DNA of 36,983 nucleotides, taken from the IMG/VR virus record IMGVR_UViG_3300028920_001939; one strand, given 5' to 3'. Every line of letters starts with the position of its first letter. Position 1 is the stretch's first letter. The stretch comes from a virus. Lineage: Duplodnaviria > Heunggongvirae > Uroviricota > Caudoviricetes. The notes under the pieces are model-generated. The model ran no database searches and had not been told where the DNA came from. It saw only the letters and a list, made by a program, of their open reading frames with translations. Made by a program: the position numbers and the translations under genes. Shown one piece after another: positions 2,628 to 28,256 of the stretch.

Positions 2628-4844
2628 ATGGAAGTACCACTAATAGCTAAACCAATTGTGAAATACAACAGAGAATACTTCGAGATATGGCATAACAAGA
2701 GTAAGAAGCATATTGAATCACCTATCAAACCCTATTTCTACAGTTACAAACCAGATTTGTTATCAGGCGATATCGAGATAAAACAGATACAAGCAAAGGC
2801 ACTATCAAACATGAAAGAGAGAACCTTTTACAAGTATGAATTTAATTTAAGAAGTGAATTAGTTAAATCAATAGAAGATGGTGTTACTTTTGAAGATAAT
2901 ATACCATTTGTTATCAGAAACAGAATTGATAATCCAGAGATATTCAGAAGATACAGAAATTCAGAAGAATTAACTTTCTTGTTTCTTGATATAGAACAGT
3001 ATTGTCCACCGGGTGAACCCTTTCCTTCTTATGAAGATAGATTGTTATCAATAGCGTGGTGCACCAACGATAGAATAATCAAATGTGCTTATCTTAAAGA
3101 AGATAATACAACTGATAAGAAACTTCTGAACTTATTCTTGAATAAATACAAAGAGATAGACCCAGATGTTATCGTGGTATTCAATAAGTCATATGATATA
3201 CCAACGATTATCAGAAGATGTGAAAGAAATGGATTAGATATCAAGAGATTATCAAGAGATTCAAGTAAACCTGAGCTTGACAAACACGGCAATATCAATA
3301 TTGGTGGCGTTATTGTATATGATGTTTATGATTCTGTTAGAGATGATCAATCACTTACAGGCAACGTGCCTAATCGTGGATTAAAAGCAGTATCAGATTA
3401 CTTTGGTTTTAATAGTGAAAGAGAACCTTTGACTAATAAAGAGATACAGATGTATATAGGTAAGAAAGAATTAACAGATTACAACAAAGATGATATAAGA
3501 AGAACACTACACTTGTTTGATATTTATTGGGATAACATAGAATTCAACGCAAACGATTTGGGTATACCACTTAACGAAGCATTAGATTTAAACATATCAA
3601 ATCTCGGTCTTATTGTTATAGGCGACGCTTATAGAGAATACAATATCATAGCAGATGGTAAGAATGAAGATAGATTTCCAGAGATATTCCAGAGAGGGAA
3701 AAGTCAATTTGAATCTAATTATGAAGGTGCTTTAGTAGATATAGCAAGAACTGGATTGTTTGAACCTGTGCTTAAAGCAGATTACGGTAGTATGTATCCT
3801 ACAATTATGGCTGAATTTAACTTATCACCAGATACGACAACACTAATAGGATTTGAAGAATATGGTAAGTTTGATATAATCGAAGAAGATAATTGGTTTA
3901 TTTACAGAATACCAGATAAAGAATTGAATAAAACTATGGTGATTCAAGTTTTGAAGAATGTAAAAGGGTTTTCTGCAGAGTTAGTAAAAAAGTTCTTAAA
4001 AGAACGTTCTGAATACAAAAAACTATGGAAAACAACGAACAAAAAGCATTACCGTGTAAAAAGTGATAACCGAAAGGTTAAAGCGAATGGTGGAGTTTAT
4101 GGCAATCAGGGTTTTGGAAAGCATCCATTTGGATTTGTTCCAATTGCAATCGCAACTACCGGGCTGGGACGTGAATGTGCAACACTATTGATTGATATTT
4201 TAGATAAATTATACCCAGATTCAGTTATAGAGTGGGACACAGATGGAGTTTACTTCTCGGCGAAAGATGTTGATAAAGATAAGATACAACAGTTGTTTAT
4301 CAATGAGTTAGAAAAGAGATTTAAGAAGAAGTTAGAATTAACAATAGATATAGATGATTACGATAAGGGTTACTTTTACAAAGCGAAAAACTATGTTTTA
4401 CAGAAAGGTGATAACATAATATATCACGGCGTGGCTATGAAAGGTAGAAACAAAGATTTATTAAAGAAAAATCTTATACGGGATTTAGCGGTTTCTAAAC
4501 TATCAGGTAGTCCAACGCAACCGATAATAGATAAATATATGGAATTAGATTTCCCACTTAAATTCTTTGCTATGAATGTAACTTTGAGGCGACATATCAA
4601 TCAGTATAAAAATCCTGAATCAACACTATCATCAAGATTAGCGTTACGTGCTGAGAAACTCTTGAAGAAGAAACCCGAAATAGGTTCGATATATCACTAT
4701 GTTAAAACAAATCAAGATTATGAATTACTTGAGTTGGCGAATGTGAAAGATATAGATAAAGAATACTATAGAAATGAGATTAAAACAATCGCTGATATAT
4801 TTCAAGTAGTATTGAAAGAACCGAAAATAGATAAATGGTTATAG
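2628..4844 (+). CDS. polB: Family B DNA polymerase with 3'-5' exonuclease domain
   Basis: ExoI LDIEQ, ExoII FNKSYD, ExoIII YNKDD; Pol A DYGSMYPTIM, Pol B KVKANGGVYG, Pol C DTDG; C-terminal IDKWL. Confidence 0.95.
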   Translation: MEVPLIAKPIVKYNREYFEIWHNKSKKHIESPIKPYFYSYKPDLLSGDIEIKQIQAKALSNMKERTFYKYEFNLRSELVKSIEDGVTFEDNIPFVIRNRIDNPEIFRRYRNSEELTFLFLDIEQYCPPGEPFPSYEDRLLSIAWCTNDRIIKCAYLKEDNTTDKKLLNLFLNKYKEIDPDVIVVFNKSYDIPTIIRRCERNGLDIKRLSRDSSKPELDKHGNINIGGVIVYDVYDSVRDDQSLTGNVPNRGLKAVSDYFGFNSEREPLTNKEIQMYIGKKELTDYNKDDIRRTLHLFDIYWDNIEFNANDLGIPLNEALDLNISNLGLIVIGDAYREYNIIADGKNEDRFPEIFQRGKSQFESNYEGALVDIARTGLFEPVLKADYGSMYPTIMAEFNLSPDTTTLIGFEEYGKFDIIEEDNWFIYRIPDKELNKTMVIQVLKNVKGFSAELVKKFLKERSEYKKLWKTTNKKHYRVKSDNRKVKANGGVYGNQGFGKHPFGFVPIAIATTGLGRECATLLIDILDKLYPDSVIEWDTDGVYFSAKDVDKDKIQQLFINELEKRFKKKLELTIDIDDYDKGYFYKAKNYVLQKGDNIIYHGVAMKGRNKDLLKKNLIRDLAVSKLSGSPTQPIIDKYMELDFPLKFFAMNVTLRRHINQYKNPESTLSSRLALRAEKLLKKKPEIGSIYHYVKTNQDYELLELANVKDIDKEYYRNEIKTIADIFQVVLKEPKIDKWL

Positions 4845-4857
4845 TGGAGGAAAGAAA

Positions 4858-5178
4858 ATGAAATTTGGTAGAAGAAAAAGTAGTATGAAAACTATGACGC
4901 AAGAAGATATAGACAAAGGACTTGAAGAATTGTTTAAGGGGCAGAAAAAACCAGAAGAAAAATCAGTTGTTCAACAGAGAGAAAATTTGCCAAGAGCAGG
5001 AGCCCCAAAACTATCATTCGAGCCAGAACCTGAACCAGAGCCAGAAGAAGAAGAAACGTATTGGACTGGTGAAGATTGGGAGAAATGGGCTTATTCTATG
5101 TATAAGAACTATCCCGATTCGAGAAACTTCTTGCCAGAGTGGTTTTTGAAAGCAATACAAGATGCACTAAATCAATAA
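4858..5178 (+). CDS. Hypothetical protein with acidic EP/E low-complexity linker
   Basis: GGAGG SD; EPEPEPEPEEEE tract; fills the gap between polB and the AAA+ gene. Confidence 0.7.
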   Translation: MKFGRRKSSMKTMTQEDIDKGLEELFKGQKKPEEKSVVQQRENLPRAGAPKLSFEPEPEPEPEEEETYWTGEDWEKWAYSMYKNYPDSRNFLPEWFLKAIQDALNQ

Positions 5179-5183
5179 GTTGG

Positions 5184-6167
5184 GTGGGTAATATCTTAAA
5201 CAACTTTGTAGGTTACACCAGCAATATAAGAGATTTAGAGAATTGGTTATCAGATTTCTTTGATAACAAAAACAGAGAAAACAACTATGCGATAGTAGTT
5301 GGTAAATCAGGTAACGGTAAAACATATCTTGTAGAGAAATTAGCAAACAGATTTAAATCTCAATTATTTAGAATAACACCAGATGATATACAAGATAACA
5401 ACGATATCAATAATGTGATTAAATCTCTTAATCTGTATAACCCACTTGAGGGAAGTAGGCGAAAGATTATTCTTATTGATGATATAGATGAGTTTTATTA
5501 TGTCTATAGGAATAGACTAATAAAAGATTTGCCAAGATTATCACTTAACCCTGTTATCTTTACGAGTAAATCGTTTAAATTCCCACCAGAGTTTAAGAAT
5601 TATTCTTTAAAAGTTGGTAAGAAGAAAACTTGGTATGTTTTAATTGATCCATTTGAATATAATGTTTATCAATTTCTAAAAACATTACCTTCTGATTATT
5701 CTGATAAACAACTGAAAGATATAGCATACAAATCTCCTTCTGTAAGAAGCGCAATATTATCTCTGAATGGACCCATTAATGATATAATAGAAACAGATGT
5801 AACAAGATGGGATAACATTAGAAACATTAAAGAGAGAAAATTCAACGAACCGCTTACGAGAAGGAACAAAAAATATATATTTAACAGTATCAGAGGTTGT
5901 AATAATGGTACATTATATGATTTGAGTGCTGTTGTAGATAAGTTTCTTGATTTTAACGAGAGAATCGTGTGCAAACACGAAACACATGATGGTGTATCTG
6001 AAGGGATTAACTGTTGGTTTATCAATAATATGAAAGAACCGGTCACAAAAGTTAAGTGGTATTATACTTATAGTAAGAAAAAAGGTAATAATAAAAGTAA
6101 GAAGGTAATAGAGAAGAAACCGAAAAAGAAGATTGTTAAAAAGACCCAGATGGACAAGTGGTTATAA
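5184..6167 (+). CDS. Clamp-loader (RFC large subunit-like) AAA+ protein
   Basis: Walker A GKSGNGKT, Walker B ILIDDID, LENWL before Walker A, Lys-rich tail ending in PIP-like TQMDKWL; GTG 5184 preferred over the track start 5139. Confidence 0.8.
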   Translation: MGNILNNFVGYTSNIRDLENWLSDFFDNKNRENNYAIVVGKSGNGKTYLVEKLANRFKSQLFRITPDDIQDNNDINNVIKSLNLYNPLEGSRRKIILIDDIDEFYYVYRNRLIKDLPRLSLNPVIFTSKSFKFPPEFKNYSLKVGKKKTWYVLIDPFEYNVYQFLKTLPSDYSDKQLKDIAYKSPSVRSAILSLNGPINDIIETDVTRWDNIRNIKERKFNEPLTRRNKKYIFNSIRGCNNGTLYDLSAVVDKFLDFNERIVCKHETHDGVSEGINCWFINNMKEPVTKVKWYYTYSKKKGNNKSKKVIEKKPKKKIVKKTQMDKWL

Positions 6168-6469
6168 TGAAAAGAGATAAAAGTTATAGTAGTTTGGTGC
6201 TGTTGGTTTTCGTAAGGAATATAGATAAAGAGAAATGTGATTCTATCAAACAACTGATAGATATATCCGATAAGTTAGGTGAAAAAATAGGTTATAAAAC
6301 AGATATAAGTTATGATACGAAACTATCAATAATAAATGATATGATAGATAGGGGTATCTTAATAAAAGGTAAAAGAACTGAAACACAACCTATATCTGTA
6401 AAACCGGAGGTAAGAGAATATATTGTTGAGGCATTATCAAAAGTGAGAATGATGAAAGATGGAAGTTGA
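6167..6469 (+). CDS. Putative winged-helix DNA-binding protein
   Basis: TAATG coupling to the RFC-like gene; LSIINDMIDRGILIK helix plus wing-like segment. Confidence 0.55.
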   Translation: MKRDKSYSSLVLLVFVRNIDKEKCDSIKQLIDISDKLGEKIGYKTDISYDTKLSIINDMIDRGILIKGKRTETQPISVKPEVREYIVEALSKVRMMKDGS

Positions 6470-6761
6470 TTCTGATAAGAGAAAGTATAAGATATGGTTC
6501 GATGAAATCTGTTTAGGGAAGCAACAAATAAGAAAAGTTGGTAATAGCTTCGTTATAACAATTCCAAAATCAATGCTAGAACGAAATAAATTGAAAAAAG
6601 GTGATAATGTAATTCCCATATTGCTTATGCGAAAAAGAAAGTTAGTTGGGGAAGCAGATGAAGGTTTTGAATGGTTAAAAGTTTCTAAGCAAGACAGAAT
6701 TAGGTTCAAAAGGTATTTGAAAGATATGGAAGATTTAGAGCATGCGGCGCAAAAAAATTAG
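6459..6761 (+). CDS. AbrB/MazE/SpoVT family DNA-binding protein
   Basis: IRKVGNSFVITIPKSMLERNKLKKGDNV signature. Confidence 0.85.
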   Translation: MEVDSDKRKYKIWFDEICLGKQQIRKVGNSFVITIPKSMLERNKLKKGDNVIPILLMRKRKLVGEADEGFEWLKVSKQDRIRFKRYLKDMEDLEHAAQKN

Positions 6762-6794
6762 TCCAAAATCTCCAGAGAGAAACCGTAATGTTCC

Positions 6795-6933
6795 GGTTGT
6801 GGTCGTATATACGTGCAACAGAAGTACGTGTATATACGAGACTAGTACTAGTTATATGTACACACTTTTTCATAATACCTTTTTGGATATGGCGAGGGCT
6901 TTAGCCCCTCGCCTAATATCCCACAACCAAAGG
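6795..6933. other. Palindrome- and hairpin-rich intergenic element (candidate origin, regulatory site or ncRNA)
   Basis: TCGTATATAC/GTATATACGA inverted repeat (6803-6812/6830-6839), perfect palindrome ACTAGTACTAGT (6841-6852), GC-rich hairpin 6886-6920, long-range GGTTGTGG/CCACAACC pairing. Confidence 0.55.
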
Positions 6934-6940
6934 TGGTAAA

Positions 6941-7192
6941 ATGGTTATAAAAAAAATCTGGGATTACCAAAATAGACTTGAGGAGATAGGAAAAAAATTC
7001 GTTGAGAAGAATATGAAACACCTACGAATGTTTCCCAAGATTATCATCTTCTTTAGCATAACATACTGGCATAGTTTGTTTATTAGTTGCCAACTTGATT
7101 TATATATGTGGCTATTTGTTACACTTAGCTTTGGTCTTTTCATATTCATATTTCCATTTTCTAAATTCATCAAGCTTGATAATAATCAATAA
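6941..7192 (+). CDS. Hypothetical 2-TM membrane protein
   Basis: AGGTGG SD; two hydrophobic segments. Confidence 0.65.
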   Translation: MVIKKIWDYQNRLEEIGKKFVEKNMKHLRMFPKIIIFFSITYWHSLFISCQLDLYMWLFVTLSFGLFIFIFPFSKFIKLDNNQ

Positions 7193-7335
7193 TGATCAAA
7201 TCTTTTAAAAGGAAAGAACTTAATCTGACCTTACCGAGAGTGGTCACCAGGTAGAGTAAAGGTATGCTAGAATACCAAAAAAATTTAATAATGTTTATAA
7301 GCATAAATACGATACATAATAATAAGGTAAAATCT

Positions 7336-7698
7336 ATGAGTAAAGAAGAAGATATATTACAACAACTGAAAAAACACAAGTCGCTTACACACTTAGAATT
7401 GGAGCTACTGAATAACATTCCCTATAATTCTGTTAGAGCCCGGATCTCAAATCTTCGCAAAAAAGGTATTGATATCAAATACGATATGGTAGAAACAGGG
7501 AAATATATTCTATCTGAAGATTATCAACTACTTAACTACCTTGCTAAAAATAGATTATTCAACCGGGAAATATCAATTAAAAAGGTAGCGAAAGAGTTAA
7601 GTGTAAAGGAAGACGATTTGAAGTTATTAGTATCAAAATTGTTTGATAGGTATGATATCATTCAATTGTCACCAGATAGGGTGATTATCAAAAATTGA
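7336..7698 (+). CDS. Helix-turn-helix (winged-helix) DNA-binding protein
   Basis: ILQQLKKHKSLTHLEL...SVRARISNLRKKGIDI pattern; ATG 7336 preferred to track start 7264. Confidence 0.7.
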   Translation: MSKEEDILQQLKKHKSLTHLELELLNNIPYNSVRARISNLRKKGIDIKYDMVETGKYILSEDYQLLNYLAKNRLFNREISIKKVAKELSVKEDDLKLLVSKLFDRYDIIQLSPDRVIIKN

Positions 7699-7705
7699 GG
7701 TAGAA

Positions 7706-9052
7706 ATGCAGAGAAGAATTTTGTTATATGAAGGCGCCGTGTCAACGCAAAAATTAAACGCTTGTAGCTCTATGATCCTTTTTAAAAATTTTATCAATTA
7801 CAGTAACAAAAAACAAAATTGGCAGTATCACTTTTTTTATCCAAAAGACAGCAAACACCAACACACAATCCCTTTCCCAGAGTTAAACAAACCCAACATA
7901 CACAACTACTCCCACCAAGCACCCGGAAGTTGGTATCGTTGGCATTTCAACGCAAATGCTATAAAAGACCACGTTAATATGTTTGATAACGATTTCGATT
8001 GTATATTTACCAACGACGTAGAAACAGCTCCACATTTCAACGAATTATTCAACCGCCGGTGGCATTTCGACATACCTATACTCGCATACTGGGATTGGGT
8101 AGAATTACCCGAAAACGGCGGAAACTTAGATAATTTCGTAGTTCAACTCGCTTCTGTATTAACAACCACAAAAACCGGTGTTAATTCCCAATGGCAGAAA
8201 GATATCATAATGAGATACGCCAAAAGATACTTTTCTCCAGATACAATAGAAAAACTTGAAGAAAAGATACAACCACTCTATATTGGCATAGAAACAGAAG
8301 AAATCAACAAATATCAACCCTTTGGCAATCAAGATAACGATTTCAAGATAATATGGAACCACCGAATATCACCACAAACTGGTTTCAACAAATTCATATC
8401 AAAGATAGATAAATTGTATAAGAAATACAACAATATCAAAGTTATAGTAACAAACCCAATAAATAAAGGTACAGTAAAGAAAAAACCCTATATCATAGAA
8501 TTACGAGATTTAGACCGTGCTAAATACTTCTCTATCATAAAAGATTGCCAACTTGGCGTTGGTTACTTTCAAAACTACTCTGCCTGGTCAATGTCCATAA
8601 CAGATGTAATCGGTTGCAACATACCGGTACTAGTACCAAACGACTTCGCTTTTAGAGAGATGTTGGAATGGAATTATCCCTATCTCTTTACAAACGATTT
8701 TGAGAAGAAACTCATATCAATAATCGAAAATTATCCAAAAGAGTATTTTATGAAGAAATACATAGATAAACACGATTGGAATAACAGAATAGATGATTGG
8801 ATATCATTTGTAGAAACATCATTCAACACCGATGAAAAATCCACCTCAAACAACAAAAACGTATTAGATATAGTTAAGAAACACAAAACACTACCAAAAC
8901 GTGAACTAGTCCAAAACATAATGAAATTCGGCTATATCATAAAATGGACACCCTTCCGCAACTACCTGCTCAATCACGGCGTAAACGAAGAAATATCAAA
9001 AAACACAATATACACTACAAAAGATCCAAAACATATCAAGAGGTGGTTATAA
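7706..9052 (+). CDS. GT-B fold (GT4-like) glycosyltransferase with C-terminal helical extension and PIP-like tail
   Basis: IIWNHR at start of the C-terminal Rossmann domain; SAWSMSITDVIGCNIPVLVPNDFAFREML resembles the GT4 E-x7-E region; GAGGT SD. Confidence 0.75.
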   Translation: MQRRILLYEGAVSTQKLNACSSMILFKNFINYSNKKQNWQYHFFYPKDSKHQHTIPFPELNKPNIHNYSHQAPGSWYRWHFNANAIKDHVNMFDNDFDCIFTNDVETAPHFNELFNRRWHFDIPILAYWDWVELPENGGNLDNFVVQLASVLTTTKTGVNSQWQKDIIMRYAKRYFSPDTIEKLEEKIQPLYIGIETEEINKYQPFGNQDNDFKIIWNHRISPQTGFNKFISKIDKLYKKYNNIKVIVTNPINKGTVKKKPYIIELRDLDRAKYFSIIKDCQLGVGYFQNYSAWSMSITDVIGCNIPVLVPNDFAFREMLEWNYPYLFTNDFEKKLISIIENYPKEYFMKKYIDKHDWNNRIDDWISFVETSFNTDEKSTSNNKNVLDIVKKHKTLPKRELVQNIMKFGYIIKWTPFRNYLLNHGVNEEISKNTIYTTKDPKHIKRWL

Positions 9053-9725: not shown

Positions 9726-9983
9726 ACGAATAAATTTATCATAATAATTATATTATTTCTTTTGTTATCACCTATGTTAGTTTATTCTTCTGTTTCAAAT
9801 ACTAAAAAAGAAAAATATGGTGAATGGTCACCTTATTGGAAGATAGGAAATTTCCCTAACAGTTTATTCTACATAGTTAAAAATTGTTTAAAATATGATA
9901 ATTCATCTTCAATTATTGATTGTATAATAAAATGCATACATATTTATTTAGAGGCGAGAATCAATGCGTTGTCAAAAGTGTGA
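9726..9983 (+). CDS. Hypothetical secreted or membrane-anchored protein, probable ACG start
   Basis: Track ORF 9762..9983 extends in frame to ACG 9726, 5 nt after a GGTGA SD, giving the signal-like NKFIIIIILFLLLS. Confidence 0.55.
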   Translation, partial: TNKFIIIIILFLLLSPMLVYSSVSNTKKEKYGEWSPYWKIGNFPNSLFYIVKNCLKYDNSSSIIDCIIKCIHIYLEARINALSKV

Positions 9984-10500
9984 ATTGTATAAAACAAGAA
10001 AAAACATAGTTTTAGGTAGCGGCTCCATATCTTCAAGAATAATATTCATAGGTGAAGCACCTGGATTTCACGAAGATAGAGTAGGCAAACCCTTTGTTGG
10101 CAAAGCTGGTAAAATCTTCGATAATATGCTATCAACTATCAATCTCAACCGAAACCAAATATATCTTACAAACATAGTAAAATGCCGACCACCCAAAAAT
10201 CGCAATCCAACAGATGAAGAAATATCAACATGTAGCAAATATCTCGATATCGAAATCAGAAATATACAACCCAAAATTATCATTCCAATGGGAAAATTCG
10301 CAACACAATACATTCTACAGAAAAACGACATCAACTTCGAATCAATGTTTAAATCCCGTGGCGTATCAATAAAAACAAGAGATTACATAATCTACCCAAT
10401 CTACCACCCCGCCGCTCTTATCTATAACAACGATTTAAAATCAGTTATGAAAGATGATATGAAAAGAATAAAAGAAATTATAGAAGGTGATAAGAAATGA
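9964..10500 (+). CDS. udg: Uracil-DNA glycosylase, family 4 (4Fe-4S)
   Basis: CxxC N-terminus, GEAPG, PFVGKAG, TNIVKCRPPKNRNP, C-terminal YHPAA. Confidence 0.95.
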   Translation: MRCQKCELYKTRKNIVLGSGSISSRIIFIGEAPGFHEDRVGKPFVGKAGKIFDNMLSTINLNRNQIYLTNIVKCRPPKNRNPTDEEISTCSKYLDIEIRNIQPKIIIPMGKFATQYILQKNDINFESMFKSRGVSIKTRDYIIYPIYHPAALIYNNDLKSVMKDDMKRIKEIIEGDKK

Positions 10501-18517: not shown

Positions 18518-19057
18518 ATGGATTTAATAATACTCGATAGAGATGGGACACTAATCCCAGATGAATTCTACAAAAACTGCAACAGAGAAAACTGGCACCA
18601 CATTATGCCAATCAATCACAAACTCATAAAACTAATCAAGAGAAATTTCAAAGATTACATATGCTTCATAGTAACAAATCAAGCACCCGTTGCTTTAGGT
18701 CTATACACCGAATCAAGAGTAAAAGAGATAAACAACTTTCTAATTACCTATCTCAAAAACGAATGCATAAATGTAATCGACCATAACTACTGCCCACACG
18801 TTGATATCAATTGGGCAACAGATACAGGCACTCCCGTAAACGTAAACTATGTAAGAGATTTCACAAACAGAAAGCCCTCACCAACAATGGTTTATCAATT
18901 ACTCAAGAAACACAACTACACAATAAAAGCATTTGATAAGATATACGTCTTTGGCGACCGCCACGAAGATAAAGAGTTAGCAATCAATCTAAGCGCAAAA
19001 TACATTGCGATGGATTTCGACACACCATATTCAGAATTAGAGAATAAGATAAAATGA
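18518..19057 (+). CDS. HAD-IIIA phosphatase (GmhB/HisB-like)
   Basis: LDRDGTL, VTNQ, CPH, RKPSPTM, GDRHED motifs. Confidence 0.85.
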   Translation: MDLIILDRDGTLIPDEFYKNCNRENWHHIMPINHKLIKLIKRNFKDYICFIVTNQAPVALGLYTESRVKEINNFLITYLKNECINVIDHNYCPHVDINWATDTGTPVNVNYVRDFTNRKPSPTMVYQLLKKHNYTIKAFDKIYVFGDRHEDKELAINLSAKYIAMDFDTPYSELENKIK

Positions 19058-20046
19058 AAATAGAACCCATACTTAAAACATTGAAATCATTACGAAATCT
19101 AAAAGTGTTAGTGATAGGCGAAACTATCATTGATGAATACATTTTCTGTAAAGCGATGGGACGACCTGAAAAAGCCGCAACAGTATCAACAAAATTCTTA
19201 TCGAAAGAACAATACGTTGGCGGTTGCTTAGCAGTAGCAAATCACGTTTCTGGTTTTGTAAAGCAAGTTGATGTTATAACAGTAGCAGGTAAAAATCCCG
19301 AATGGAAACTTTTTATAAACAGTAAAATAAATCAAAACGTAAAAACATTATTCTTTGATAACAACAAATCACCAACAATCATAAAAACACGATTTCTTGA
19401 AGATTGGAATAAAGCAAAACTTTTTGAGGTATCAATAATCGACGATAAACCTCTACCACCCGAAGTTGAGAAAACTATAGTAACTTTTCTCCAATACGAA
19501 CTACAAGATTACGATTTAGTAATCATCACCGACTTCGGACACGGACTTTTCACACAAAATATTCGTGATACAATATCAAAATACGCAAAATACATATGCG
19601 TAAACGCACAAACCAATTCTGCCAATCACGGATTCAACTTAATCACGAAATATACCGGTGTTCAATTTATTTCCCTTGACGAACAAGAAATTCGTTTGCC
19701 CTATTGTAGCAAGTATGGAGATCTACTTGAACTGATACATACACTATCTGTTGATACTACCTGTAATAAAATAAATGTAACGCTTGGCTCAAATGGAATA
19801 ATTTATTATCAAGATAAAAAAACGTATCAGGTGCCGGTATTTAACTCGAAACCAGTAGATACTGTGGGTGCTGGAGATGCAGTTTTATCAATTTCATCAT
19901 TATTGGCATACAAAAATACAAACCCAGAAATAATACCATTCGTCGGCAACGCTGTTGGCTACCTCGCAACACAATATTTAGGTAATAAAGAATCAATAAA
20001 CTATAAATTATTATCAAAAACATTAAAGGAGGTATGTAATGACTAA
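19054..20046 (+). CDS. PfkB-family sugar kinase (RfaE/HldE domain I-like)
   Basis: VLVIGETIIDEY, DFGHG, VTLGSNG, VDTVGAGD. Confidence 0.9.
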   Translation: MKIEPILKTLKSLRNLKVLVIGETIIDEYIFCKAMGRPEKAATVSTKFLSKEQYVGGCLAVANHVSGFVKQVDVITVAGKNPEWKLFINSKINQNVKTLFFDNNKSPTIIKTRFLEDWNKAKLFEVSIIDDKPLPPEVEKTIVTFLQYELQDYDLVIITDFGHGLFTQNIRDTISKYAKYICVNAQTNSANHGFNLITKYTGVQFISLDEQEIRLPYCSKYGDLLELIHTLSVDTTCNKINVTLGSNGIIYYQDKKTYQVPVFNSKPVDTVGAGDAVLSISSLLAYKNTNPEIIPFVGNAVGYLATQYLGNKESINYKLLSKTLKEVCND

Positions 20047-20605
20047 TAATTTCATTAAAAATTATAAAATAAACCTGATAAGCACTTTAAACAAAATCAA
20101 TGATAATGCCATATTACAATTATCAAATATGTTAATTAACGCAAGAAACAAATACAAAACAATCTTCATTATGGGCAACGGCGGTTCAGCCGCCACCGCT
20201 TCACACTTCGTTGGTGATTTATCAAAAGGCGCACTTGTTGAAAACAAGCCACGATTCAAAGCTATCGGCTTAACTGATAACATACCCAACATTACACAAT
20301 GGGGTAACGATATCAATTACGAATCAATATTCGTTGAGCAACTAAAAAACTTACTTGAAATAGATGATATCGTAATCGGTATCAGCGGTAGTGGCGAATC
20401 AAAGAATGTGATAAACGCAATCAAATACGCAAACTCAATAGGCGCTTACACAATAAGCATAACAGGTTATTCTGAAGATAACACACTAAACAAAATATCA
20501 AAATATCATATACACATACCCTGCGATACAATGCAAGTGGTAGAAGATTTGCATATGATAATAGAACATATGATAACATTAATGATACACGAGGAGAAGA
20601 AATGA
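20039..20605 (+). CDS. SIS-domain phosphosugar isomerase (GmhA-like)
   Basis: GNGGSAATASHF, GISGSGESKNV, QVVEDLH. Confidence 0.9.
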   Translation: MTNNFIKNYKINLISTLNKINDNAILQLSNMLINARNKYKTIFIMGNGGSAATASHFVGDLSKGALVENKPRFKAIGLTDNIPNITQWGNDINYESIFVEQLKNLLEIDDIVIGISGSGESKNVINAIKYANSIGAYTISITGYSEDNTLNKISKYHIHIPCDTMQVVEDLHMIIEHMITLMIHEEKK

Positions 20606-21366
20606 TAAGGTATAAACTTTATTTGCATTACTTGAGATTAAAGCATATAAGAGGTAATAAAAATAAGGTTAACTTTCTTAATAGAAATTGGGATTACGCA
20701 ATCGTTCTTGATGCTTGCCGTTATGATACATTCAAAGAGTTATATGAAAGTGATAGATACAAAGATATAGGAATATATGGCAAACTATCAAAGATGATAT
20801 CTCCCGCTTCACATACGATTGATTGGATAAAATATTGTATGAAAGAAGAACATAAAGATATGATTCTATTAACTACAAGTCCTCATTTCGATCCTTCGAG
20901 ATTGAAGAAATATAAAGTAAAGAATTGTTTTTATAAGATAAAACACCTTTGGAAAAATTACTATAATGAAAAACTTGGTGTTGTACACCCTGAAAGTATG
21001 ATTGATGCATTCAATATCACTAAAATGAGATATCCTGATAAAAGAATCATTTTATGGTTTATGCAACCTCATAGACCTTACATTATCAATAAAGAAAAAT
21101 CCTGGACAGATTATCATAAACTTAAAGATACAAACGCAGAAGAAATAAATTATGAAGATATAGAAAAAAGTTACGAAGCGTATGTTGATAATTTATATCT
21201 TGTTATGAAAGTTATCAAAAATATAATTCCTAAGATGAAAGGAAAAGTAATCATTACATCTGACCACGGTAACCTTTTTGGAAAATATAATGTTTTCTTA
21301 CACCCAAGAATGTTACGAGTTCCTGAATTAGTAGAAGTTCCTTATCTGGAGGTTGATAACAATTAA
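20602..21366 (+). CDS. Alkaline phosphatase/sulfatase-superfamily core protein
   Basis: IVLDACRYD, FMQPHRPY, ITSDHG, VPYL motifs. Confidence 0.8.
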   Translation: MIRYKLYLHYLRLKHIRGNKNKVNFLNRNWDYAIVLDACRYDTFKELYESDRYKDIGIYGKLSKMISPASHTIDWIKYCMKEEHKDMILLTTSPHFDPSRLKKYKVKNCFYKIKHLWKNYYNEKLGVVHPESMIDAFNITKMRYPDKRIILWFMQPHRPYIINKEKSWTDYHKLKDTNAEEINYEDIEKSYEAYVDNLYLVMKVIKNIIPKMKGKVIITSDHGNLFGKYNVFLHPRMLRVPELVEVPYLEVDNN

Positions 21367-22003
21367 ATCATTTCTATTCAAATTGTTTTATCCATTATAT
21401 CTACAATATTGTAAAATTAAATACATTCAAGGAAATGTAGAGTTAAATAGAAAAACACATTTGTTACTCTATAAAAACTCAAGAATTATATCAAATGGCA
21501 ATCTTAAAATAGGTATTGATTACTCGAAATACGGCGGTTCAGGAATTGACCCACGAAAAGATAACTGTAGAATACATCTTAAAAATTCAACATTATACAC
21601 AATAGGCAACGTAAGTATAAAACCATCTGTTAAGATAATAGGTTACAATTGTGATATTGAAATAGATGATGGAACACAAATAAACTACGGCACCGAAATA
21701 ATCTGTAGTAAAAGAATAACAATAGGTAAGAATTGCCGTATTGCACCTAATGTAGTTATTCGTGATTCAGATGCTCACAAACATTCTTATGGAAAAGAAA
21801 AACCCAAAACATCAATCAAAACTATTCATATCAAAGATAACGTGTGGCTCGGTCAGCAATCAATGATACTCAAAGGTGTAACAATCGGAAAAGGTTCTGT
21901 AGTTGCACCTAAATCAGTTGTAACTAAAGATGTTGAACCGCACACACTCGTCGGCGGGATACCAGCTAAAAAATTAAGAGATAATATAAAGTGGGAGATA
22001 TGA
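21353..22003 (+). CDS. Left-handed beta-helix acyltransferase
   Basis: Hexapeptide repeats; ITIGKNCRIA, DSDAH, VWLG...ILKGVTIG, VGGIPAK. Confidence 0.9.
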   Translation: MITIKSFLFKLFYPLYLQYCKIKYIQGNVELNRKTHLLLYKNSRIISNGNLKIGIDYSKYGGSGIDPRKDNCRIHLKNSTLYTIGNVSIKPSVKIIGYNCDIEIDDGTQINYGTEIICSKRITIGKNCRIAPNVVIRDSDAHKHSYGKEKPKTSIKTIHIKDNVWLGQQSMILKGVTIGKGSVVAPKSVVTKDVEPHTLVGGIPAKKLRDNIKWEI

Positions 22004-22985: not shown

Positions 22986-23710
22986 ATTTAAAACATATCA
23001 AAGATAGTATTGATAGAAACACAATAAGAATTCTTTATAAAAAACAAATGAATAAATCTTCAGAAAGAATAAGAGAGTTACGAATAAAACATTTAGGTGA
23101 AAGAGTATTCATATTAGGCAACGGTCCCTCTTTGAACGAAACTGATTTCTCACTTATCAAAAACGAAACATTCTTTGCCGCAAATGCTTTCTATAAAGGT
23201 ATGAAAAATTTTAATATAAAACCCCAATACTGGGCAATCGGTGATGGCGGAATATTTGATAACCATTACAAGAAAGTTATGAAACTCAACACAAATCTAT
23301 TCTTAACACATCAAGCACTATATAATTATTTAACTTGTCCTGTATATAAAAAGAAAGAACCTTACCTTATAGAAACAATAGGTAAGATAAAAAATAAAAC
23401 AAATTTCAGTTTCGACATATCAAAAGGCATTTATATCGGTGGCGGTATAATTCCCATTATGATACAAATATCATTTTATCTTGGATTTAAAGAAATGTAT
23501 CTTTTAGGTTGTGATTGTGGGAGCAAAGGAAAACCCTCCCATCACTTTTATAAAAGCAACAGAAAACCCCGAGATGATTATTCTGAAATATTCGAAATAT
23601 ATGAAATTTGTAAATACGCACTTAACTTTTGCGGTAGAAGAATATACAACGCAACAGTTGGTGGCAATCTTGAAGTATTCCCAAGAGTGAAGTTGGAGGA
23701 TATTGTATGA
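22982..23710 (+). CDS. DUF115/Maf/GT42-like protein, putative CMP-sugar-acid transferase
   Basis: FILGNGPSL, FAAN, QISFYLGFKEMYLLGCD, HHFY, YNAT; resembles the GNGPS...LGYKEIYLxGxD layout of CstII-type sialyltransferases. Confidence 0.7.
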   Translation: MNLKHIKDSIDRNTIRILYKKQMNKSSERIRELRIKHLGERVFILGNGPSLNETDFSLIKNETFFAANAFYKGMKNFNIKPQYWAIGDGGIFDNHYKKVMKLNTNLFLTHQALYNYLTCPVYKKKEPYLIETIGKIKNKTNFSFDISKGIYIGGGIIPIMIQISFYLGFKEMYLLGCDCGSKGKPSHHFYKSNRKPRDDYSEIFEIYEICKYALNFCGRRIYNATVGGNLEVFPRVKLEDIV

Positions 23711-24543
23711 AACCATATACAGTAGGTGAGATAGGCATTAACCATAACGGTTCTTTAGAGTTAGCAAAACTTATGATAGATTACGCTAAGTTACATAAAA
23801 TTAACGCTGTTAAGTTTCAGAAACGAAATCCTAAAGAATGTGTTCCGAAAGATCAATGGGATATATACAAAGACACACCCTTCGGTGAAATGAAATACAT
23901 AGATTACAAAGAAAGAATCGAATTCGGTGGAAGAGAATACGACGAAATAGATTCATATTGTAAACAAAAGAATATCAGTTGGTTCACTTCTGTTTGGGAT
24001 AAAACAAGTTTCAAGTTCATAGCAGATTTCTATAATACACCTTTTATAAAGATACCTTCTGCTTGTATAACAGATATTGATTTACTTAAATGTGTTTCAG
24101 AATATGATATTCCAGTTATTTTATCAACAGGCATGACAACGCAAAAAGAAATTGATAACGCACTAAAGATAGTTGGAGATAAAGTAAAATATATCTTACA
24201 TTGTGTATCATCTTATCCTACGCCAGATAACGAAATGAATATGCTAAAACTCAAAACATTACAAGAGAAATACGGCGATGATTACAAGATAGGTTTCTCA
24301 AATCATTCTGTAAAACTAATCTACACGATACAAGCATATATAATGGGAGCCGAAATGTTAGAGTTCCATATAACACTCGACCGAAGTTTTAAAGGCACCG
24401 ACCACAAATCAAGTATAGGTCCACGTGGTCTTGAAGTTTTGATGAATCATATTGATTCTGTAGAAAGCGGTTGGGGTAACGGTGAATTACAATATCAAGA
24501 TTCAGAATTACCTATTATAAGAAAATTGAGGAAAATAAAATGA
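23707..24543 (+). CDS. NeuB-family (PEP-dependent) nonulosonate-type synthase, short form without C-terminal SAF/antifreeze domain
   Basis: EIGINHNG, KFQKR, LHCVSSYP, GFSNHS, EFHITLD...GTDH. Confidence 0.92.
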   Translation: MKPYTVGEIGINHNGSLELAKLMIDYAKLHKINAVKFQKRNPKECVPKDQWDIYKDTPFGEMKYIDYKERIEFGGREYDEIDSYCKQKNISWFTSVWDKTSFKFIADFYNTPFIKIPSACITDIDLLKCVSEYDIPVILSTGMTTQKEIDNALKIVGDKVKYILHCVSSYPTPDNEMNMLKLKTLQEKYGDDYKIGFSNHSVKLIYTIQAYIMGAEMLEFHITLDRSFKGTDHKSSIGPRGLEVLMNHIDSVESGWGNGELQYQDSELPIIRKLRKIK

Positions 24544-25226
24544 ATAGAGATATACTCTTGTTAGGTATGGCAAGAGAAAGTAGCACCCGCTGTCCTAATA
24601 AAATGATACGCAAGTTTGATAATACTACATTATTTGATATCTATCTAAAAAAATTAGAACATATAAAAGATATATCAGGTAACGATATATTTTCTAATAT
24701 AGTTATTGCTGTTAGTCCTGAAGATAAAAAGTTATATGAGATATCAAAAAGATATAATGTTGATATAGAAGATAGAAATAAGATTTCTATTAGACAAGGA
24801 GCAGTATTAGGTGAAATATTTAATTATCTAAATAAGTATGATGAAGAATATGTTATGTGGGTAAATGGGTGCTTTCCATTTCTAGAACCAGAAACAATCG
24901 CTTCTGTAGGTAATTTTTTTAGAGTTGCCTATACTATGAAAAGTTTGCATTGTATCAAAAGAAGAAAGAACTGGTTCTGGCGTTATAACAAACCAATAAA
25001 TATCAAAAGTGGTTCGCATTCAAAGACACAAGATTCTTTGCCTATATATGAATCAGTCCATTGCTTTCATATTTTCAACAGAGAATATCTATTAGATAAT
25101 TGCGCTTATTGGGATTTCACTAAAAACAATCCCTTCTTATACAAAGTTGAAGAAGGTAAAGAGTTTCTTGATATTGATACTGAATTAGATTTCGAGATAT
25201 GTGAGAAATTATGGGAATCGAAGTGA
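24540..25226 (+). CDS. NeuA/KdsB-family CMP-sugar-acid synthetase
   Basis: ARESSTRCPNKM (ARxxSxRxxxK loop), LDIDTELDF. Confidence 0.85.
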   Translation: MNRDILLLGMARESSTRCPNKMIRKFDNTTLFDIYLKKLEHIKDISGNDIFSNIVIAVSPEDKKLYEISKRYNVDIEDRNKISIRQGAVLGEIFNYLNKYDEEYVMWVNGCFPFLEPETIASVGNFFRVAYTMKSLHCIKRRKNWFWRYNKPINIKSGSHSKTQDSLPIYESVHCFHIFNREYLLDNCAYWDFTKNNPFLYKVEEGKEFLDIDTELDFEICEKLWESK

Positions 25227-27014: not shown

Positions 27015-28256
27015 ATGGGAGAAATATTAATTTCGGCAAAAGTATGGGAATTAAAAGATGGCATTATAACAAAGATATCAATAAATGATGTTATTTTTAA
27101 AATCGAAAGATTAGAAGAAAATATCATTAAGAAACCAGAACCAGTTGAGCAAGTTGAAACAAAAAGATGTATTCAATGTGGTGAAGTTAAACCTTTATCT
27201 GAATTTTATAGAAGAAAAGACTCAAAAGATGGTTTTAACAACAGATGTAAGAAATGTTTAGATGAATATCAGAAATTACATAAACAAGGTTTAATTCCAA
27301 AAAGAACTAAACCGAAAGCATCAGCTAATTACGGCGGAATATCAATACTACCTGAAGTTGCTGATAGAATCAGAGAAGCATTATCATCACGAAAGAATGC
27401 TAATCTTAGAAGTATAATAAAAGAATACTATCCAAATGTTTCAAGAAAATCTGTGAAAAAATATGAATGGGCTTACAAGAGATATCTTAAAGAAAGTGAA
27501 CCTGAAAAATTCGGTGATGTTATTGGGGATAAAGCAAATAGAAAAAAAGATTATACTGGTAAAATTCTTGGTTATGTAGGTCATACACCTATCATTGATA
27601 CTGTTTTAGAAGAATTCAAAGAAGCAGTATCGAAGAATAGAAGCGTAAAAAAAGTTATGAGAAATTTTTTTCCAACTTATAAAACAAGCACACATAGAAG
27701 TTTAGTAACAACATATAAAAGATGGGTAAGAGAACAAGAGGGTAAAGAATTAGATATTAAACCTAAAAAATCTGAAAGACACTTACCAGAAGATACTGTT
27801 GGTTACTGTGAAACATATCAAACATTGATAAAGAAAGATGAGTATGATGATGTGTTACGAGTTATCAATATAGTTGAATACGATTATCAACCTACTGCTG
27901 AAGCAATAAGAAACAGAAGCACAATACCTAAACACCGAGTTGCCGCAACTTTGAGATATCTACAAGATGAGAATATTGTTAAATACAGAATCAATGAATT
28001 CGGCAAACCTGTTTACTTTACAGTTAATAAAAAAGAAACTAATCCTGTTTTAGAAGTAATGGATTACGGCAATTTCACATTAGAAGAAATATCAAAAAGA
28101 GTTGGCTGGGATAACAAAAAAACAAGAGAAGCATTAGTAGATTTAAAAAATAAAAACAAGATAGAAATTGTATTTGATGATACAGGACATATCGTATATA
28201 AGAAAATTAAGAGAAATAGGATAATCAAAGAGGATCAAAAGAAAACAGGTGATTGA
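27015..28256 (+). CDS. Multidomain putative DNA-binding protein (Zn finger plus repeated helical/HTH domains)
   Basis: CIQC...CKKC; two similar ~50-aa helical units; two C-terminal wHTH-like units. Confidence 0.6.
   Translation: MGEILISAKVWELKDGIITKISINDVIFKIERLEENIIKKPEPVEQVETKRCIQCGEVKPLSEFYRRKDSKDGFNNRCKKCLDEYQKLHKQGLIPKRTKPKASANYGGISILPEVADRIREALSSRKNANLRSIIKEYYPNVSRKSVKKYEWAYKRYLKESEPEKFGDVIGDKANRKKDYTGKILGYVGHTPIIDTVLEEFKEAVSKNRSVKKVMRNFFPTYKTSTHRSLVTTYKRWVREQEGKELDIKPKKSERHLPEDTVGYCETYQTLIKKDEYDDVLRVINIVEYDYQPTAEAIRNRSTIPKHRVAATLRYLQDENIVKYRINEFGKPVYFTVNKKETNPVLEVMDYGNFTLEEISKRVGWDNKKTREALVDLKNKNKIEIVFDDTGHIVYKKIKRNRIIKEDQKKTGD

Follow-up and report, generated by a model that had tools for sequence, protein, structure and literature searches.

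A C-terminal Trp-Leu tail on the replication proteins and a glycosyltransferase of an archaeal virus-like element: a candidate docking peptide for a divergent sliding clamp

Why should a glycosyltransferase end in the same residues as a DNA polymerase and a clamp-loader-like protein? We asked this question of a stretch of 36,983 nt from a virus of the Caudoviricetes (IMG/VR record IMGVR_UViG_3300028920_001939), hereafter the window, which is part of a 101,246-bp archaeal virus-like element; ∼47 kb of this element, the window and ∼10 kb upstream of it, were examined. The family-B DNA polymerase (PolB), the AAA+ protein P0002 and the glycosyltransferase (GT) P0003 encoded there end, by translation, in EPKIDKWL, KTQMDKWL and PKHIKRWL, each followed directly by the stop codon and exactly as given in an earlier reading of the DNA made without database searches (the sequence-only reading). 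That reading took the ends for variants of the PCNA-interacting protein (PIP) box that lack the glutamine but keep positions 4, 7 and 8, and this holds in all three proteins: position 4 is I, M and I, respectively, and positions 7-8 are W-L. Our analysis suggests that the shared ending, [IMV]-[DK]-[KR]-W-L, is probably a Q-less C-terminal peptide of the PIP type that docks on PCNA. That the tail docks P0003 onto a divergent viral PCNA, so that the enzyme works on newly copied DNA, is a more tentative proposal, whose chances we put a little short of even. The tailed genes and their parts are:

2628..4844, + strand: PolB (P0001), 738 aa; Pfam DNA_pol_B at 1.3e-18, with an exonuclease domain
4818-4841, stop codon at 4842-4844, + strand: PolB tail EPKIDKWL; the pattern h-x-x-[WFY]-h (h, hydrophobic) stands at the exact end in the family
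5139..6167, + strand: AAA+ clamp-loader-like protein P0002, 342 aa; Pfam AAA at 1.5e-6, PHROG 11838 'clamp loader of DNA polymerase' at 2.6e-13
6141-6164, + strand: P0002 tail KTQMDKWL, after a Lys-rich stretch (net charge +14 over the last 40 residues)
7706..8821, + strand: GT-B (GT4-like) core of P0003, residues 1-372, from the model and Foldseek
8846..9016, + strand: basic winged helix-turn-helix (wHTH)-like domain of P0003, residues 381-437; pI 9.9, net charge +6, helix-strand-helix-helix-strand
9017..9052, + strand: flexible tail TKDPKHIKRWL of P0003, residues 438-448 and the stop codon; candidate PCNA-docking peptide

We first consider how unusual these endings are. Among 65 non-overlapping open reading frames (ORFs) of the window, [LIVM]xxW[LIVMF] stands at the C-terminus of three (PolB, P0002 and P0003), where 0.116 would be expected from the per-position frequency of the pattern inside the same proteins (P=2.3e-4), and beyond these three no + strand ORF of at least 40 aa in the window ends in WL. 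We compared the related loci L001, L004, L006, L010, L011 and L012, of which L010 and L011 have a PolB 86% identical to that of the window; at L010, four proteins carry the C-terminal pattern against 0.07 expected (P=8e-7). As the pattern was defined post hoc, the P values are indicative only and the comparative evidence carries more weight. A DNA element shared by the gene ends was considered as the source of the tails and rejected: the three tails differ in their synonymous codons, stop codons and 3' flanking DNA, so that the conservation is one of the peptide.

The comparative evidence is strongest for the polymerase. A homology search returned 118 PolB relatives (41-87% identical, on contigs of up to 183 kb), and h-x-x-[WFY]-h lies at the exact end of 94 of them and within the last four residues of 101, with a background of 0.011 per position, so that the C-terminal motif of the PIP type seen in the sequence-only reading is indeed conserved. 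The full form, Q-x-x-h-x-x-a-a (a, aromatic), occurs in only six of the 118. Some relatives (P0199, P0204, P0205, P0207, P0212, P0234, P0236 and P0260) are ∼330-380 aa longer, at 1062-1115 aa, and keep the tail. Most of the long relatives carry PF14528 and/or PF14890, which we take to be intein/homing-endonuclease domains, and inteins therefore seem common in this PolB family. In a tblastn search of 50,697 phage records, the best match to PolB was 24% identical (Salinibacter and Halorubrum virus polymerases). Another relative, P0223 (54% identical), is deposited in a metagenome-assembled genome (MAG) labelled Candidatus Heimdallarchaeaceae, and a fragment is found in an Atribacterota MAG.

The second tailed protein, P0002, is likely an analogue of the RFC large subunit, although in Pfam only the AAA domain was matched and no Rep_fac_C collar. 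Its full-length, in-frame orthologues end in MDKWF, MDRWL, MDRWM or VDNYF. Gene callers had assigned only 215-273 aa to the orthologues (L010:12562-13554, L001:6803-7801 and L004:7490-8458); we rejected a truncation of the gene in these relatives, as tblastn shows a reading frame of ∼330 aa to be intact, and the true starts are thus probably non-ATG codons or lie further upstream.

Does the element have a clamp on which such tails could dock? The sequence-only reading had noted that no PCNA gene is visible. This is true for the window itself, but the contig has a candidate PCNA gene a few kb before the window. Directly upstream of the window, the gene-position index of the 101,246-bp contig places an XPF-like nuclease, a canonical RFC-S (AAA plus Rep_fac_C) and a Cas4-like nuclease. 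At L011, a 254-aa ORF (P0280; L011:5560-6324) adjoins the primase, XPF and RFC-S genes, and a protein of the same length and 94% identical to it (P0281) is listed on a contig of 101,246 bp, equal in length to the one that contains the window. Sequence searches with P0280 and P0281 against Pfam, PHROG and the PDB gave no match. Their predicted structure (predicted local distance difference test, pLDDT, 92) has only PCNAs among its top 50 PDB matches, with TM-scores of 0.70-0.79 at 8-17% identity; these include 3a2f and 1isq, in which Pyrococcus furiosus PCNA is bound to PolB and to the PIP-box peptide of RFCL, respectively. Viral PCNA homologues numbered 23 (38-94% identical), and HRTV-27 has no annotated PCNA. 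Structure prediction thus indicates that the element encodes its own, very divergent PCNA, recognisable by fold alone; the search for PCNA elsewhere on the contig that the sequence-only reading had proposed therefore yielded a clamp (P0281), and RFC-S besides.

At L010 and L011 the tail is present on three more proteins: an SPL-like radical-SAM protein (KVDKWL), a 264-aa N6/N4 DNA methyltransferase (LVDKWTI) and a 193-aa protein (SVDRFL). The orthologue of the radical-SAM protein on the 101,246-bp contig (P0312) has a CxxxCxxC motif at C43/C47/C50 and likewise ends in KVDKWL; in PHROG the protein resembles 'DNA repair photolyase'. Judged by their families, all tail-bearing proteins of identifiable function other than P0003 act on DNA. 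From these sequences it is most likely that the tail marks the clients of the viral clamp, namely PolB, P0002, the SPL-like radical-SAM enzyme and P0003.

Other endings at these loci resemble the tail to varying degrees. A 65-aa ORF (L001:8380-8577) ends in PKVVKWL, and its positional counterparts end in HNQRW (window 6742-6939) and NLRW (L004:9058-9246); the ORF of the window overlaps a stretch that had been described as palindrome-rich and hence may be no gene. A large N6/N4 DNA methyltransferase of 613-670 aa (L001:91-2103, L004:1496-3352, L011:14681-16552 and L006:735-2576, with an orthologue shortly before the first position of the window) has a different, acidic end with a Trp, E-[EK]-I-D-W-E-I, which is conserved (DDEWEL at L006) and may represent another type of docking peptide. 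In the sugar island described below, a hexapeptide-repeat acyltransferase (window 21353-22003) ends similarly, in NIKWEI; the hexapeptide protein of L001 lacks this ending, and the resemblance is probably a coincidence.

Next, we asked what kind of enzyme P0003 is. An AlphaFold (AF2) model built with 90 aligned relatives had a pLDDT of 94 and a predicted TM-score of 0.93. In Foldseek its core matched MshA, GlgM, PimA and BshA at E-values of 1e-13 to 1e-10 (TM-scores by target 0.6-0.76), and searches of AFDB Swiss-Prot and the AFDB clusters returned generic GT4 matches only. Glycos_transf_1 is matched by 41 of the 90 relatives, the family profile matches GT4 structures at 5e-15, and a PHROG scan of the family returned 'glycosyltransferase' alone; D98, H219, R220, Y274 and W294 are near-invariant. 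The C-terminal region of two relatives matches HTH_24 or HTH_45. The tail follows this well-folded domain with a mean pLDDT of 61 over residues 441-448, falling below 50 for residues 446-448. By its model, P0003 is therefore a GT-B (GT4-like) enzyme that could plausibly be catalytic and that carries a basic wHTH-like domain followed by a disordered tail; model, Foldseek and charge agree with the GT-B enzyme with a basic helical C-terminal extension that had been proposed from the sequence. A profile search collected 643 representatives of the family at 50% identity. The four ESM-Atlas clusters nearest to P0003 are 100% viral (Uroviricota), with the C-terminal domain included; an Atlas feature search with the C-terminal domain gave no usable match, a scan of IMG/VR with the GT alignment found no relative, and tblastn with P0003, P0019 and P0046 against the 50,697 phage records found nothing.

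Is the tail conserved in GT homologues, a condition that the sequence-only reading had set for its proposal? The four closest homologues (P0006-P0009) and the L010 GT end in K[KR]WL and P0013 (51% identical) in EEWI, and across these GTs the length of the linker varies while the W-[LI] end is fixed. The distant P0042 (∼25% identical to P0003) ends in SLEGWL; it is encoded near RFC-S and Cas4 on a 182,603-bp contig, and a contig of this length is also recorded for a PolB homologue ending in TLDAWI (P0188, 55% identical). Among 150 independent GT representatives at 50% identity, the strict motif ends six, with 0.73 expected (P=1e-4) and a spike at the exact terminus. One representative ends in the canonical QKSLSGWL, and a looser, post hoc Q...h...aromatic pattern is found in 14 representatives versus 1.8 expected. 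The tail thus recurs in close homologues and in the distant P0042; three GT lineages (P0010-P0012) have no tail.

We propose the following mechanism. The tail would tether P0003 to PCNA rings left on freshly replicated viral DNA, the wHTH-like domain would grip the duplex and the GT core would transfer a sugar to a modified base, and viral DNA glycosylated in this way would be protected from host nucleases. In this scheme we infer PCNA binding, the DNA acceptor, the acceptor base, the donor sugar and the anti-restriction role. Taken by itself, the claim that P0003 acts on DNA appears to us about evenly balanced, if anything slightly doubtful.

Several observations weigh against this proposal. 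The motif ends only ∼4-10% of the GT-family representatives, and in the viruses of the three tail-less GT lineages PolB and the AAA+ protein keep theirs, so that the GT does not depend on docking to the clamp. The L004 GT (PKTPKKWL) also has no hydrophobic residue at position 4. The glutamine of position 1 is replaced by E in PolB, K in P0002, P in P0003 and V in the radical-SAM protein P0312. P0003 itself matches no family in Pfam (E<=0.1) or PHROG, and its fold matches are generic GT4 enzymes with small-molecule and lipid acceptors. Neither the window nor the ∼10 kb before it nor the related loci yielded a dCMP/dUMP hydroxymethylase or a TET/JBP gene; gene annotation here confirms what the sequence-only reading had remarked for the window, and its suggestion that genes generating 5-hydroxymethylcytosine (5hmC) or 5-hydroxymethyluracil might be found elsewhere gained nothing from the ∼10 kb upstream. 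Lastly, a sugar island close to P0003 offers it an ordinary role in glycan or protein glycosylation.

This island, of 15 kb, starts 2.7 kb downstream of P0003 and encodes GT2, SDR, DegT, GNAT, SIS, PfkB and NeuB proteins and cytidylyltransferases; heptose-type genes (PfkB kinase, SIS isomerase and nucleotidyltransferase), NeuB and a CMP-sugar cytidylyltransferase lie at window 19054-21366 and 23707-25226. It raises the question whether the tail docks on the viral PCNA while P0003 glycosylates a protein at replication centres, or is sequestered or timed there, with a chemistry tied to the glycan island. We consider this unlikely. The island is near, sugar genes also flank the replication block at L012, the GT4 fold matches have acceptors other than nucleic acids and no pathway to a hydroxylated base was found; set against these points, the other tailed proteins of known function act on DNA, P0003 has its basic wHTH-like domain, no transferase of the island bears the strict tail, the nearest structural relatives of P0003 are all viral and its family is homologous to a lineage that glycosylates nucleobases. 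Since the island adjoins the replication genes both here and at L012, the position of P0003 in the 'replication block' and not in the glycan island, to which the sequence-only reading had appealed, is correct as an observation and weak as evidence. Phage GT-B enzymes that resemble MshA and BshA glycosylate 5hmC in DNA, with heptose and Kdo (3-deoxy-D-manno-octulosonic acid) among the sugars, according to a preprint (Pyle et al., bioRxiv 10.1101/2023.12.21.572611), and the sugar island could therefore equally supply donors for DNA glycosylation.

The reading in which P0003 glycosylates DNA at the clamp has partial precedents among viral enzymes. The phage GTs of that preprint, which depend on MT/5mYOX, are likewise viral GT-B enzymes, with MshA and BshA as the closest structures solved, and a donor island of the heptose and nonulosonic-acid type lies near P0003. 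Their 5hmC arises through a C5-methyltransferase and a TET-like oxygenase, neither of which was found here, and the available part of the preprint describes no clamp-docking tail or wHTH domain for them. In phage T4, the α-glucosyltransferase co-purifies with the gp45 clamp, and clamp binding is not the main determinant of the α/β ratio (PMC13216743, the former citing Sommer 2004). As in T4, a viral GT-B enzyme is proposed here to ride its own sliding clamp and to glycosylate DNA at or behind the fork. P0003 differs from the T4 enzyme in its GT family, in the PCNA type of the clamp, in its C-terminal PIP-like tail and in its wHTH-like domain, and no 5hmC pathway was seen in the ∼47 kb of this element. 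The sequence-only reading had set P0003 beside the T4 α- and β-glucosyltransferases; it is not a member of either family, as it matched neither PF11440 nor PF09198 at E<=0.1 and nothing by tblastn in the 50,697 phage records. A cellular parallel is DNMT1. The PIP box of DNMT1 is N-terminal. DNMT1 is among the clients of PCNA (PMC5264654), and in both cases a DNA-modifying enzyme would be brought to replication sites by a PIP box, in DNMT1 for methylation and cellular maintenance and in P0003, as proposed, for glycosylation and viral self-marking.

Could the tail dock on something other than PCNA, such as the clamp loader, a replication-factory scaffold, a protease or a packaging receptor? In Thermococcales PolB, the PIP box has W-L at positions 7-8. 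Like the PIP boxes that end archaeal PolB and the RFC large subunit (3a2f and 1isq), the tails of the window form the very last residues of their proteins, are hydrophobic at position 4 and have an aromatic and a hydrophobic residue at positions 7-8; PolB and a clamp-loader-like subunit are again the carriers, the latter with its tail after a basic stretch, and the genome that encodes them also has a PCNA gene. This agreement in position, spacing and carriers, together with the six PolB relatives that have the full Q-x-x-h-x-x-a-a and the presence of a clamp gene, makes a different hub rather improbable. What keeps it in consideration is the absence of a canonical Q from the tails and the divergence of the viral PCNA, whose pocket, at 8-17% identity to solved PCNAs, cannot be assumed. 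According to PMC6881253, PIP variants without the Q do bind in the same pocket. The element also departs from the archaeal systems in the range of its candidate clients: besides the replication proteins, these are a radical-SAM enzyme, a glycosyltransferase and, in a relative, a DNA methyltransferase. A complex prediction of the viral PCNA with residues 376-448 of P0003 scored 0.16, with the mark at 0.32, and counts neither way.

A comparison of P0003 with GTDC1/DUF3524, which the sequence-only reading had recommended, did reveal homology. QTMAN mannosylates queuosine in tRNA-Asp (PMC12518689). QTMAN_N is matched by six of the 90 relatives of P0003 (e.g. P0099 at 3.4e-30), and by neither P0003 in Pfam nor two other subsets of its relatives. 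In hhalign, the P0003 group aligns with the QTMAN_N-type P0099 at 98.2% and an E-value of 2.9e-14 over P0003 residues 92-439, which spans part of the N-domain and the C-terminal domain. The Atlas QTMAN cluster gave the tightest cellular superposition on P0003 (TM-scores 0.69/0.82, root-mean-square deviation 2.6 Å). The nearest named cellular lineage of the P0003 family is thus of the QTMAN/GTDC1 type (PF12038 plus PF00534), and the two are homologous. Members of that lineage, too, are GT-B enzymes that glycosylate a hypermodified base in nucleic acid. P0003 differs in having the N-terminal signature of a viral '...YPNIT...DS[YF]' group, and neither a PIP-like tail nor a replisome context is known for QTMAN. 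Is P0003 then an enzyme that glycosylates a modified RNA base, such as a queuosine- or archaeosine-like tRNA base, with an incidental tail? The homology and the close superposition would fit, but this is very unlikely: P0003 has no QTMAN_N match, the tail is common to replisome proteins and kept across deep divergence, and the nearest structural relatives are exclusively viral. That the shared endings are a coincidence of chance or composition, functionless in the GT, is extremely improbable: although the pattern was chosen post hoc and the L004 GT and the three tail-less lineages show loose maintenance, the statistics (P=2e-4 in the window, 8e-7 at L010), the exact-terminus spike in the GT family, the synonymous codon differences, which point to selection on the peptide, and the fixed WL/WI end behind a linker of variable length all oppose it.

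If P0003 does act on DNA at the clamp, where would its acceptor come from? One conceivable answer, which we rate as a long shot, is that the virus has a clamp network of its own, with a private Q-less tail code, and that a multi-step hypermodification line is assembled on this clamp: the radical-SAM enzyme (and, in relatives, the methyltransferases) would turn an ordinary base into the acceptor without a hydroxymethylase or TET enzyme, and the GT would add the sugar, possibly heptose or nonulosonic acid from the island. If true, this would be a new DNA glycosylation chemistry in an archaeal virus. At L004, a gene for QueF (preQ0 reductase; L004:12876-13241) stands right after the UDG-family gene, downstream of the tailed GT, which hints at 7-deazaguanine chemistry in the L004 lineage; the 21 kb of L004 that was read showed no DpdA/TGT. 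ARPP-1, beside the L012 GT, was considered as a hint of base modification and rejected, as this domain belongs to conflict systems and its role is unclear.

The remaining genes around the tailed proteins are:

4858..5178, + strand: small acidic protein P0004, 106 aa, between the PolB and P0002 genes; no Pfam or PHROG family match
7264..7698, + strand: winged-helix HTH_39 protein (Pfam HTH_39 at 2.3e-5), directly upstream of the GT; syntenic in relatives
9964..10500, + strand: UDG-superfamily protein, 178 aa, without the tail; Pfam UDG at 6.3e-37, syntenic downstream neighbour of the GT

Near its C-terminus P0004 has the motif L-P-x-W-F-[LI] (NFLPEWFLKA in the window), which has PIP-like spacing but is internal and which is kept in the orthologues L001:6481-6813, L004:6941-7477, L006:5783-6247 and L010:12231-12569; P0004 is possibly a further clamp client or a regulator. 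Over a short stretch, the HTH_39 protein resembles the first helix of the C-terminal domain of P0003. Further downstream in the window (27015-28256), a 413-aa protein with weak matches to a TrmB-type wHTH and to Stc1 (Cys-rich) is followed by two genes of ∼145 aa without an assigned function; an identical copy of the 413-aa protein is found on a short Logan contig.

Finally, we asked what a clamp-docked GT would mean. The sequence-only reading is supported in part: the motif, the GT-B fold, a clamp on the contig and the homologies speak for it; no hydroxymethyl pathway was found in the ∼47 kb examined, and P0003 falls outside the T4 glucosyltransferase families. A full-text literature search returned no paper that combines PIP-box/PCNA terms with 'archaeal virus', and none for 'DUF3524'. 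To our knowledge, DNA glycosylation has been described for no archaeal virus, and we know of clamp-coupled glycosylation only from the in vitro binding of T4 α-glucosyltransferase to gp45. With T4 α-glucosyltransferase/gp45 and DNMT1-PCNA as the known cases, what is new here is a predicted enzyme that combines a GT-B fold, a wHTH-like domain and a PIP-like tail, in an archaeal virus with a private, divergent PCNA. If our reading is true, replication-coupled DNA hypermodification would reach into the archaeal PCNA world, and a large GT family (643 representatives) whose nearest structural relatives are all viral would gain a testable function and a link to the QTMAN lineage, in which modified tRNA bases are glycosylated. 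A PCNA that is invisible to sequence models also suggests that viral clamps are under-counted, and one tail on a polymerase, a clamp loader, a radical-SAM enzyme, a methyltransferase and a GT would provide a cheap sequence signature for uncharacterised DNA-acting enzymes in uncultured viruses.

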